From Ascidiella aspersa (taxonomy: Eukaryota), in contig OZ004608.1 of assembly GCA_963924565.1 (NCBI GenBank), forward strand, positions 13,764,001-13,828,000: a stretch of DNA of 64,000 nt. The letters are read 5' to 3'. The position numbers and the translations under genes are program-made. Under the pieces are notes generated by a model. The model worked only from the letters and a program-made list of their open reading frames with translations, was not told the origin of the DNA and ran no database searches. Shown here piece by piece: positions 15,901-62,400 of this stretch; within the stretch, counting starts at the first letter, position 1; every line of letters begins with the position of its first letter.

Positions 15901-18900
15901 TATATTCGTTAAGGGATGTTTGACACCCGAAGTTATATAGATAAAGCATCGCGATCCGATACCAAATGACGTCATTATTATGCCTAAAAAAGTATAATCG
16001 ACATTTTTTAAGGTTGATAAGCTAGTATTTGCTTCAGGATTATTCAGTTTATTTACTTCCATTTATTAACCTACTCCGATATCACATCAATTGATAAAAA
16101 ATTTAAAATCAAATATTAAATAAGATACTGACGATCCTCGTATGAGTGAAATATATTTATCGTTGACCATCAGAACAGGCTGGTTTTCGTTTTTCTAATT
16201 CCAGACTTAGTTTGACTTTTTTTTATGAAAATAGGAAGTAGCCTAATATGCAAGCCGAAATTCGTCAAATTTACCTTTCAGATAACAACCCATCGGCTTT
16301 AAAAGCTAGAAAAAATTGCGGTTTCAGCCACTCTATTGGGTCTTGCTGGTACGGCGTCAAGTCAGAACTCCTAGTTGTTATTGAGGCAGTCATGCGGAAC
16401 GGACAAAGGCTTCCGGATTCCCACAAAAGGCAGTCGGGCGTGAAAGAATTCGCTTCCAGTCGAATGTTGTTTTCTGCAACAGTTTTCAATTTACGCTTGA
16501 CATGGATATTTGACTCGAAAAAACACCAGCAACGCTATTGCTTGTCTCGCTTTTCATCATTTTATGGATTTTGCTTGTAGTATAGTGGTTAAATAGTGGT
16601 CTATTTAACGCAAAATACAATAAATTCTATTAAAATTAACCTAACTTTTCAATGTACTCTTCTTGTAAACGTTGCAGACATTACAGCAGAGCAATGTATT
16701 AACCGGTAAACAAATTGTAAGTTTAGGCAACAATCTTGAATACCAACTACGTTTTCTTTAAACACCTCTTAAATATGAAATTGGCAAAAAAATAAAATAT
16801 AAAAATAAAGAAGGCTCTAATTTATCAAATCAAACAACAATATCACTTTAAAAGTAAAAGCTTTCTTACCAGAAAAACAGGTGAAAGACAAGCCAAGGTC
16901 ATTTAGGTCAATGGTTTGGAAATTGTTTTCAACCACTGAGTCTGTGACGAGGTCAGAGTTTGGGACCACTTCCACCTGTTAACAGAATGTTGTTCAACAT
17001 TACACTATGTTTATTGAGCTGTATGACACCTTATAACAGAATACTTCAACAATCCTTAGTAGCTATATAAAAATATATATACATTTGAAGAGAAAAAAAA
17101 AAACGAAATTCAGGAGATGCTCAATTTTGCGCAATTTCTGTCTCAAGCAGTTCAGAGAAATTCTCAAACAAAAGATGTTCGCGTAAAAATTCTGTTGTTT
17201 CATGTACTTTTCATTGACGAATTAAATATCTGGCAACGCAAATGTTTTCATAATTAACACAGAAATTGAAACATATGCACTTGATAAAAAAACAATCTAT
17301 TAACTGTACAAAACACTTTTTGAAATAAACATGGTAAAGTAAATGTGAAAAATATACCGTTAAGGAAATCCGACTTGAGTGGCACAAAGCTTCAGAAAAA
17401 GCCGCCATTTGGTTAAAATATTTCACAGTGACAATGGCGCCGTTATCATGTATGGAGGCTCCACTCATCCTCCTAAGAGCAAAGTATTTTTAGCGTATAT
17501 AAATTATACACCTCATAAAAAACATAATATAATTGGCCCTAATTCATTGGATGCCAAACCGTGCCCCGTAAACCGTATGCGTCTCTCACTTTCAGGTTGA
17601 ATTTTAGTTCTTTGGATGTCCAGTGTAGGCTAAATCTCTTGATAGTAACTTTCAGTTTCCCAAACATCAAAGGCTGAAAGGTTTACTCGCCTTACCCTTC
17701 AAGTAATTATGTGTGGTTTTCGTTGCATATATGTACACTATATTTTATGGCGTCTCGTTTTTACTATGCCCCCTTAAATAAACTTACAGGATCCACCCCT
17801 AATACTCAGGCTCTATTTCTTTTTATTGAGTCAAGTCGACATATTTCAACATTTGACAGCGTGATGACATTTATTAGAAAAGTCCTGAAGTGTGAATACA
17901 AAATCGCTTAAGTTTAGTCTATACGTAATACTATTAGTGTGCAACATCTATACTCAATCTAACTAAGCAAAGGGTATATGTGTGTAAGTGAGAACGAAAC
18001 AGTACTATACCGGTACTCATTTCTGCCCACGTGCACCTGCACTAATTCAAAAGTAGTTTCCATTTGCTATCATATTCTCACGCGATTACAGTGCAAACAA
18101 TTTTAAAACATATAACTTAAACATAATTCAACGGTTTTACAAGCAGTTTTAATTTTAGTTTTTTTTTATAAATATAATAGGGTATTTTTAAGGATTTAGC
18201 CACTAAAAGTTTGTGAGAGGAAAATATGTTTATTTCAATGTATACAACGACTTAAATAATTATATTATAAAGAATTACTATTGGTAGCTTACACCTTACA
18301 GTGTCCGGATGTGTATTTTTAGAGGGCGCATGTTTTAAGCATATAAACAAGTTATTCAGTTATACTATAACAGAAGTAATATCTAAAAATGTATACTTAT
18401 TTGTCTTACAAAAATGTCTAAACAAAGAAATGTTTAAATGTACCACGGTTATATGTAATAATGACCAAACGTAAGTAAGTGATCGCGAAATTGTGATATT
18501 TTATTTACCCATGAATGTTTTGTTACCATTCAAGAGAAGTTCAAAGTGATAAATAGGTCTAGTTCAGATTGGCAAAACTTTGGTACTACCATCTAGCTAA
18601 CTGAATACACAAACTACCAAGTTAAACCCAAACTATCACCAGACATCGGTAACACTTTTAACAAAATTACTAAAATATGCATTTTAGTTGTCATGTTTGT
18701 TAGGTCTGTTTTATTTTTGACTAACCTCTGCGACTTTACTGTGACTTCAGGGGCCGCTCCTGGATTCGTTAGCGCGTAATCGCGGCTATTTCGGCTTTCT
18801 TCACCATCGCCAATCGTCCAAGTAACATAAATTATCACTAAAAAAAGATAAAAAAAAATAATGAAACAACCTTTTTAAAAAGCGACACAAAAATAAAACT

Positions 18901-59400: not shown

Positions 59401-62400
59401 TTATTATTATCTAGAGAAGTGGTTCTCAATCTTTCAAGATAATAAAGTAAGAAACAAAAAAAACTTATAAGAGATGCGGTTTCGAGCTTATCTGGCCCAC
59501 TTAAATTAAAAAGAAATATCATGAATCCGCCACTGTTTTTACGTAATGGGCCTTTAATAACTTTGACAAGAGAACTTTGGGCCGCGACAAAAAAAGTTTG
59601 CCGACCCCTGCTTTAACCCTATACCTGTGTCTGGAGCCTTCTTGGCGGCCGCAGTCGACTGGTCGGTTTCTCTGCCGGCTTGCATGTTGATCAGGTTTGC
59701 GTAGACGCCGTCCTTGACGCGCATCAGTTCATCGTGGGTCCCCTGCTCGGCAACTTTGCCCCCCTGGAAGGCCACGATCTTGTCAGCGTTGCGGATGGTC
59801 GAGAGGCGGTGGGCGATTACGACCGTCGTGCGACCTTTTCAAGAGAGTGATTAACATAGCTGTGAGTTGACGAACATTTCAACCAATTAAGGAGCACACA
59901 GTATAAAAAAGACCTTCGAGTTTCGGTGATCTAACAAGTAAGGAACGGCGTCCAAGCGAGGCTCACGGTCGAACAAAGCATAAGAAGTTCGATGCCATCA
60001 ATGTTGAGCTCAATCGGGATTTTCACATTACGCCTCATATAGCACGCTTTGCTATACCCAGCGTACTTTGAAGCGCTCCTGTTATAATTGTTTTTTTATC
60101 AGTCGCACATTTTTTTGCGAGTATGTGCCTGTGGATATGTGAGACGTCACCACTCTTATCACCTTTTACTCGCTCGATTGTTTTTATTTATACTTTGACC
60201 TGATCCTGATGAAGCACGGTTGTGCGAAAGCTTGTCTAGAATTTAATACAATTTGTCGTTAAATAGTACCACATAATTCCTGTATACCTGAGTGTTGAAG
60301 AAAACTCGGATAAAGCCTTGTGGTACGGAGCACTAAATGACAATCACACCGTGTTGACGCTGACATAGGCTCTTTTTTATCGACTGAAAGTGCGGCTTCT
60401 ATATTTGTTTCACATTGCGAACTGTACCTTTTAGATGTTGTTTTTATACCTAAAACTAATAAGGGTGGGACAATTTTCAAAACCGTCAGCGCAATAACCT
60501 TTTCAGCCTTTAAATTAACTTTTGTTATACTTCTGTTACGTAGATTCGTAGAACTATAGGCACATCCACACTTCGCAGCAGCCAGCCTTGTTTTTCCACA
60601 ATTTAAACCAGGACTGCGGAGTCTAAGTACCACGTAAAACTACCCGAGTCCGACGTGCGCATGCGCTGTACCAATTTTTGAAACTTAAATGGCCGCCAAC
60701 TGTAAAATTGTAAGGCGGAATAGCAAATGGTGGATGTTTTCCAACCATGTGTTGTGAGTCGATGAGGGAAATGCTGAAAATTCCACCTAAATTTATTGAC
60801 GTAAATTAGTCAAATACAGGCTGTAGAGTCGGGCCTATAATCGGGAGACGTACTCGTGTATATTTTATTGGCCAAAGCCTAACTCGGAAATCGGACTCGG
60901 AAGTTGGACTCGGGTTGTTTTTACAGCAATTACGTAGTCCTGATATAAACCACTTTAATACAAACTATGCTACAAGAATGCTGCGCTCAAAAAAAAGGGT
61001 CAGTCAGCTTCTGTGACAAAGCAATCAAATGCAAATCACCTGCCGAGGCCTTTTCGAGGGCGGCTTGCACGATGGACTCGCTCTCTGTGTCGAGGGCTGA
61101 GGTGGCTTCGTCCAGTAGAAGGATCTTCGGGTTTCTAACGATGGCGCGTGCGATTGCAATGCGCTGCTTCTGGCCGCCACTCATCTGCCCGCCGCCCTCA
61201 CCGACCAGCGTTTCCAGTTTCTAAACATCAATAAAAATCGCTTTGAATTGCCAGTTCCAGCACTTTGCCCTGCAATTGGCATTGGGGTGCTTAGAGTGCT
61301 CGGGTTTGGGGGTGCTTAGAGTGCTCCGAGCACCCCTATCAGAATAATGATACACACTTCTGTAAAAATACTGAATTTGTTTGATGCGTGGGATTTGAGA
61401 CTGTGAGAGTTTTAGTCAAACAAATATTTAGCATTATTTTTCATGACGCAATTCAGCATAATACCCCGCAAATAAACGGTTAGTTGCGAGTAGTCTGGGT
61501 TATTAATACGACTGTTTACACAATAAACCCGTTGTTCGTTGAAACGAAACCGATTGGAACAAAAGTGTTTAACACCAAAAGTTAATAAATTCCCAAAGTG
61601 ACGTCATGTCTATCCGAAAATTTTGAGCACCCCTGTCTTAAACATAAGTCAACGGTTATGGCGCACCTTTTATACATTAATTACCGTCGAGCCTGAACAC
61701 AGACAGTTTTATAAAGTTACAAGGGGTCGCAGACCGCATTTACCGCGTCAGTTGATAGCACGCAACTTACCTTCGGCAGTTTGCTGATGAACGACCAGAC
61801 GTTGGCGCTCTTGGCCGCTTGCTCGACTTCCGCGTCGCTGACTCCGTCGCGCCCCCAGCGGATGTTGTCGGCGATGCTGGCCGCGAAGAGGATCGGTTCT
61901 TGCGCCACGACGCCGATGGTTTCACGCAGGCCGCGCACGTTCAGCGTCTTCACGTCGCGTCCGCCCACAGTCAACAAACCGGCCTTGTAAAAGCAGTTCG
62001 AAAGGTTTCATCTAGCACAGTTCTTATGTCGAGTGTTTAGAACAGTGGTTGTCAAACTTTTTTAGCTTTCGACACACTAAAAACACACGACAAACTCGCC
62101 CTTAACACACGACAAACTTCATGTAAATATCTCAATGTTATTAATTTGTAATGGTTAATGCGTATTTAAGTTTATAATGCTTGCGTGTATGCCTATTGGT
62201 AATACAAATACCTTGTTTTTTAAATTGACAAAAAGTTTCGTTGCACACTTGACAATATCTCGATGCCCACTAGTGTGCCGCGGCACATAGATTGGGAATC
62301 AGGGGTTTAACATTTTTTGTCGGTCTTTTTGAATTAAGGCAAATTTTAAGCAAAGTGCAATAAAGAATAACGATAGAAATCAAAAGCGTGCAAAATATAT

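Follow-up and report, generated by a model that had tools for sequence, protein, structure and literature searches.

Penelope-like hammerhead stubs in Ascidiella aspersa, some headed by a host spliced leader and likely copied from trans-spliced RNA 5′ ends

A 64-kb stretch of the Ascidiella aspersa genome (GenBank assembly GCA_963924565.1, contig OZ004608.1, positions 13,764,001 to 13,828,000 of the forward strand; hereafter the window, whose numbering is used throughout) carries short hammerhead ribozyme motifs within host genes. Here we trace these motifs to Penelope-like elements (PLEs) and describe, across the 308.6 Mb of genome searched, related copies that begin with a host spliced leader (SL). 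The 3′ part of an ABCB1/MDR1-like gene spans 50778–64000 on the minus strand (15 exon matches); one exon shares 93% identity with a Phallusia protein and 82% with Ciona proteins. At lower coordinates, exons of a trypsin-like serine protease (46467–49660, plus strand) flank the sites at 47.3 and 48.8 kb. A preliminary description had placed six hammerheads in introns of three host genes. This holds for three ABCB1 sites, located by the exon map in the introns at 56407–56912, 57702–58199 and 59838–61038, and for the 47.3- and 48.8-kb sites with their protease exons on both sides. At 16.1 kb an intronic location is only likely: exon-like frames lie on both sides, presumably those of a minus-strand gene, and protein searches for this host gene gave no match. 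A frame at 23.1–23.4 kb gave no more than a pentraxin/laminin G lead.

All six motifs are present at the positions and on the strands first described. A strict descriptor (CTGANGA, stem II of at least 3 pairs, GAAA) returned exactly four matches in the window, at 48.8, 56.6, 57.9 and 60.2 kb, the same four that had been called complete; 200 dinucleotide shuffles in 2-kb blocks gave a mean of 0.435 matches and a maximum of 3, never 4. The reported extra base after A9 and the self-complementary stem III (ACGT, ATATAT, ATGT and AGCT) were confirmed, and AGCT, ACGT and ATATAT predominate in this region across the repeat families described below. Stem II differs wholly from family to family and is paired in each. 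The CUGANGA ... GAAA ... UH core is found in five of the six motifs, and the G10.1–C11.1 pair closing stem II is present in four window copies; it is lost at 16.1 kb and kept in the family to which that copy belongs. Of the two motifs described as eroded, the one at 16.1 kb stands as a member of a repeat family. The other (47329–47365, plus strand) was rejected: it has T at position 3, a stem II of 2–3 pairs and no genomic match except itself, and a descriptor relaxed enough to admit it finds 1.3 matches per shuffle. It is likely a hammerhead-like chance match outside the system.

The 'complete' copies are less intact than they had seemed, since stem I, overlooked in the preliminary description, is damaged in three of the four. 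The window copies of families A, B and C have 1, 2 and 2 stem I pairs, respectively, against 6, 3 and 5–6 in most family members. Measured against a span of 4–6 pairs, most copies of families A, C and E fall within it; most B and D copies have 3 contiguous pairs. The best-preserved window copy is that of family D, with 5 pairs in stem I and 5 in stem II. Folding dimers to their energy minimum failed to produce the active dimer form and was uninformative, and three microRNA-like matches in an Rfam scan of the window were read as chance.

The five remaining motifs represent five separate repeat families, one each. At 60.2 kb, the decayed C-terminus of a family A GIY-YIG endonuclease, comprising its last 58 codons (59866–60038, plus strand; tblastn E 1.8e-11, 67–68% identity), is followed by the family's 3′ untranslated end (60039–60285, plus), in which the hammerhead (60197–60236) has its stem I broken by a 5-base duplication. 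The family B stub (48734–48846, minus; hammerhead 48773–48820) lies in a serine-protease intron. The family C stub (56511–56618, minus) comprises a G plus a damaged SL (56618–56607), the hammerhead (56609–56572) and a 3′ arm; this arm forms a 60-bp hairpin with an inverted 3′ copy of the same family that has a longer 'tail' (56625–56768, plus). Family D is likewise paired head to head, as a stub (57873–57991, plus; hammerhead 57930–57971) and an inverted partial copy without CTGANGA (57787–57869, minus). The family E stub (16119–16220, plus) consists of a probable SL end (16119–16124), the eroded hammerhead (16124–16161) and a 3′ arm. Two further repeats accompany these stubs: a tail-only fragment of family C without a hammerhead in an ABCB1 intron (63082–63173), and a BEL/Pao LTR retrotransposon at 1045–8701 with LTRs 97–100% identical and interrupted frames. 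Comparison of 55.5–61.5 kb with DNA contigs of two runs revealed no empty-site allele among the joints listed.

Three ribozyme-bearing copies within 4 kb of ABCB1 introns, one of them (56.6 kb) in the sense orientation, might suggest that the host has kept some intronic hammerheads to cut or regulate the ABCB1 or protease pre-mRNA. This is highly improbable. The core pattern occurs 6,226 times genome-wide, or once per 50 kb, and its reversed control 178 times, so four in 64 kb are unremarkable; 1.29 would be expected, for a P of 0.04 before allowing for selection. Evidence for clustering in ABCB1 is accordingly weak, and the window had been picked for this feature. The genome-wide count was preferred as a baseline over twenty evenly spaced 10-kb stretches, which held 5 descriptor matches, 1 of them a family member. 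Co-option is also disfavoured by damage to stem I, by the difficulty that dimerisation between different families cannot be assumed, and by the slight cleavage of metazoan minimal hammerheads even as dimers in the available account of PMC4209133. Four of the five stubs are antisense to their host gene, and the sense copy, that of family C, has a broken stem I within a long hairpin, from which the window copies appear to be inert. Taken alone, the six window motifs are ordinary mobile-DNA debris.

Genome searches connected each family to its coding parents. Candidate matches numbered 1,593 for family A (40 scored), 1,097 for B, 1,180 for C, 2,363 for D and 52 for E; family E yielded 40 further matches at 72–84% identity, and its exact pattern occurs 56 times against 0 in the control. 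In longer copies of all five families, a GIY-YIG frame lies 100–280 bases 5′ of the hammerhead. The family A parent is a 488-aa frame carrying RVT_1 (E 3e-10) and GIY-YIG (E 2e-7) that stops 185 bases before the hammerhead. For family B, a 377-aa frame running from the reverse transcriptase (RT) to the endonuclease stops 110 bases before it; in that copy, GIY-YIG scored under the Pfam cut-off. Family C parents extend from the RT end through the endonuclease (loci L109, L092 and L082), a family D parent is a 309-aa frame (L117; tblastn 1e-19 to 1e-22), and the endonuclease end of a family E parent was found in L153 (tblastn 1e-29). RT and, at the C-terminus, GIY-YIG were found in one frame by Pfam in family A and in relatives of families B and C, and by tblastn for D. 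The search for linked RT and GIY-YIG frames suggested in the preliminary description therefore recovered endonuclease-coding parents in all five families and RT parts in four. Its statement that the relics lack a recognisable RT is true inside the window, which nonetheless retains the endonuclease remnant at 59866–60038, and fails genome-wide, where the parents of A–D have RT parts.

These families share the traits of endonuclease-bearing (EN+) PLEs, namely a pseudo-LTR with a hammerhead, tandem or inverted 5′-truncated copies, and a tail. Across the genome, many copies form inverted pairs, head to head, like those of C and D in the window. In a tree of 15 proteins, all from this genome, B and D group with their relatives, A stands alone on a long branch, and C and E belong to a well-supported group. 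By the linker motifs given in the available text of PMC8557442, B and D appear to be Penelope/Poseidon-like, and the others Neptune- or Nematis-like. The proposal of several distinct PLE or retrozyme-like families has thus survived in its first half. That the motifs belong to non-LTR retrozymes replicating through RNA circles is very unlikely: retrozymes have the same type of ribozyme, and their derivation from PLE ends has been proposed (bioRxiv 10.64898/2026.07.22.740005, as far as available), but no tandem units occur at these sites and the endonuclease frames adjoining longer copies already contradict it. Elsewhere in the genome, one locus (L070, 640–2560) does hold a retrozyme-like array of four tandem units of ∼632 bp, and every unit carries a larger hammerhead-like motif. 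Other loci of note are a tandem array of 3,422-bp PLE units (L095, G000:C2 at 30.63 Mb); an 816-aa open frame of the same family near a contig end (L076, end of C1); and a 2.5-kb interval between two family D motifs in which there is no coding frame (L097).

The feature missed by the preliminary description is a spliced-leader junction. In the clade of C and E, a 3′ splice site stands immediately before stem I. Long C and E copies carry a pyrimidine tract and AG there; in its place, short copies have a common 16-base head directly 5′ of stem I, which exists in two forms. The first form is the Ciona spliced leader, as given in the part of PMC7986045 available. It has 623 exact genomic matches, including a 584-bp tandem array with a GTAAG donor. 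The second, which we did not find in the literature consulted, has 2,688 matches, of which 2,275 are followed by GTAA, including a 429-bp array. Ciona has been described with a single leader. Both leaders are thus exons of tandem SL-gene arrays with GTAAG donors. CTGANGA follows 2–25 bases after the leader in 176 of the 413 second-leader matches without GTAA and in 80 for the first leader, compared with 0 in controls. The resulting 256 leader-headed copies are a count of this pattern, not of ribozymes each checked in full; the strict descriptor was passed by 11 and 3 among the first 30 listed loci per leader. In every family checked, six from the C/E group (C, E and the L080, L084, L087 and L095 types), the join to the leader falls on the acceptor AG, and both leader types are found within the same families.

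One window copy bears this mark and a second probably does. Before its core, the 56.6-kb copy has a G and 11 leader-like bases; 11 of these 12 places match the second leader, followed by a 7-base deletion, and the head does not match the intron form. This copy keeps a damaged SL. The copy at 16.1 kb probably retains an SL end: its six bases next to stem I agree with the end of the first leader, not with the intron form.

Leader sequences also occur in other genomic settings. The array of the Ciona-identical leader lies at G000:C3 5.2–5.3 Mb (L236) and that of the second leader at G000:C7 from 14.77 Mb (L282); at G000:C7 2.4–5.4 Mb, the first 42 bases of the second SL gene are dispersed in a common (TA)n-rich context (L237–L242). 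Several hammerhead-free repeat families, looked at around position 1500 of their loci, carry either leader at a fixed internal place with common flanks and resemble LTRs with the leader at the U3/R border (L199, L201, L202, L204, L205, L214, L230 and L235; L176, L184, L186, L203, L208 and L229; L207 and L223). In L189, L190 and L191, again around position 1500, the leader is followed by an AT-rich stretch and ATG, two of them with a second, relict leader; these are possible retrocopies of host mRNA 5′ ends. One candidate leader junction in family D was rejected as the element's own inverted arm.

How did the leader come to head these copies? If the elements targeted the splice donor of SL RNA genes, the leader would be target DNA, and the thousands of SL genes in the genome would offer ample sites. 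NeSL and CRE are retroelements that insert within SL RNA genes. This explanation is barely credible here: SL-gene sequence was found up- or downstream of the leader in 0 of 34 leader-headed copies, which already contradicts it for these 34. Moreover, target-site duplications enclose the leader. Fifteen of the 34 copies have an inverted partner within 200 bases, and among 20 solo copies, 7 are bounded by duplications of 9–13 bases that enclose everything from leader to 3′ end, compared with a mean of 0.44 and a maximum of 3 in 500 swapped controls. The inserts between these duplications are 112–116 or 197–202 bases long. At L304, a 12-base duplication encloses the leader and hammerhead together with the 5′ UTR and 17 initial codons from a full-length family, and the same order of acceptor, hammerhead and start codon recurs in the 3,422-bp tandem array of its parent family.

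A second sign lies immediately 5′ of the leader. G occupies position −1 in 86 of the 176 second-leader copies and 34 of the 80 first-leader copies (120/256); the background, taken from 200 kb of genome, is 19% G (P 7e-24). Both SL arrays carry T at this position; one dispersed gene-like copy has G. An extra 5′ G of this kind may mark a copied cap. Alternatively, the leader could have been captured once per family long ago, with the leader-headed stubs now spreading as independent SINE-like elements, in keeping with copies that are short, numerous and of discrete lengths. We consider this unlikely, given that both leader types occur in the same families, that the sequence 5′ of the leader varies between copies, and that the frame of a full-length family is matched at its 5′ end by L304. 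Some stubs may nevertheless have undergone secondary spread.

We therefore favour the reading, at a probability of roughly 80%, that the five motifs are minimal hammerheads in end-fragments of five PLE families, and that the leader-headed copies probably arose by reverse transcription of trans-spliced element RNA at its 5′ end. Hundreds of stubs begin with the host SL, so their likely source is the 5′ end of a host-processed RNA. Since they span the cleavage site, the template was uncut. As judged from genomic copies, leader-headed stubs are thus likely cDNAs from the 5′ end of capped, sense, trans-spliced and uncleaved PLE RNA.

Several observations weigh against this reading. No leader was found in the copies of families A, B and D (0/22, 0/17 and 0/40), and the leader model does not, therefore, cover these families. 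Even family C consists mostly of copies that retain the intron side: among 43 copies from 39 loci, taken as about every second of the first 100 of 121 listed, 23 are of the intron type, 10 of the leader type and 10 unclassified. A clear leader remnant is present in only one window copy and requires one substitution and one deletion; the remnant at 16.1 kb is 6 bases long. Thirteen of the 20 solo copies have no duplication of at least 9 bases. About half of the leader-headed copies are without the G that would mark a copied cap. RT recovery was partial, with only the RT end for C and D and only the endonuclease end, with no RT core, for E. Finally, the Rfam scan of the window found no hammerhead at E up to 10.

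Under the favoured explanation, a tandem or read-through transcript would be trans-spliced at the acceptor to give a capped RNA beginning with the leader and hammerhead. The element protein would start reverse transcription inside this RNA, 110–200 bases from the cap, and pass through the uncleaved hammerhead and the leader up to the cap. The short cDNA would then be inserted, often head to head with a second partial cDNA. Intron-side copies would be ordinary 5′-truncated 3′ ends. The template could be the 5′ end of element mRNA, or it could arise by read-through from 3′ ends and older stubs; the data fit both. Because the leader's last bases replace the acceptor YAG, stem I is retained and, in family C, gains one pair (5 to 6), a gain that the T-rich sequence opposite could yield by chance. 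A tentative extension, for which we put the odds somewhat short of even, is that placing the splice acceptor against stem I would let SL trans-splicing cut tandem or read-through transcripts into capped mRNAs with one more pair in stem I, and that the element would then mass-produce run-off copies of this capped 5′ end, 110–200 bases long.

If true, solo hammerheads would be the 'strong-stop' DNAs of PLEs, and the leader would be a natural tag that fixes the PLE template's strand, its state of processing and its start sites. PLEs are the closest relatives of telomerase. They keep introns, and one proposal for their copying invokes an antisense template (PMC3846280). Genomic copies in which a host leader and an extra 5′ G accompany an uncut hammerhead show that one clade uses processed sense RNA in vivo, and they suggest where some of the thousands of solo hammerheads in animals come from.

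The window motifs, as PLE minimal hammerheads, are of a kind already known (Cervera and de la Pena 2014, PMC4209133). The accessible portion of that paper describes metazoan PLE hammerheads as thousands of solo copies per genome, with opposite-strand pairs and low activity even as dimers, and the A. aspersa families resemble them in the core, the extra base between 9 and 10.1, the G10.1–C11.1 pair and the palindromic 15.2–16.2, as well as in their many families of mostly solo copies and in opposite-strand pairs 100–700 bp apart. PMC6765202, in its available part, reviews the dimer model. The A. aspersa elements are also like the EN+ PLEs of Craig et al. (2021, PMC8557442) and Arkhipova et al. 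(2013, PMC3846280) in combining RT with a C-terminal GIY-YIG domain, in 5′ truncation, in tandem and head-to-head inverted copies, and in an optional tail and target-site duplications. In the available text of these two papers, 'leader' and 'trans-splic' occur 0 times, and our literature search, which covered sources other than Repbase/Dfam, supplements and some key papers, found no paper whose listing links Penelope elements to a spliced leader. The 2013 paper, as available, leaves undecided whether the template is antisense or unspliced sense RNA; for leader-headed copies it must be processed sense RNA, whereas intron-type copies are compatible with either model.

The junction itself has partial precedents. 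In Drosophila virilis, a PLE intron ends at helix I and is cis-spliced (PMC4209133, available part), whereas in A. aspersa the sequence joined at that point is a trans-spliced leader of the host, now fixed in hundreds of copies; genomic copies of the spliced form are not reported in the accessible text. The Anolis Poseidon element studied in vitro (Frangieh et al. 2024, PMC11167929, as available) starts reverse transcription internally, at two sites ∼110 bases into the frame; its hammerhead is protein-assisted and lies close to the start codon, and the RNA that serves as template is uncleaved. The internal start, the uncleaved template and the placement of the hammerhead are all shared by the A. 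aspersa elements as interpreted here. In contrast, lizards are without trans-splicing, and the part of that paper available does not show run-off copies in the genome that reach a capped 5′ end. As with the SL-tagged retrogenes of dinoflagellates (PMC6050394 and PMC12014239, in their accessible parts), finding the leader copied into DNA points to an RNA intermediate; there the copied sequences are host genes, whereas here they are the 5′ ends of PLE RNAs, with the ribozyme directly after the leader.

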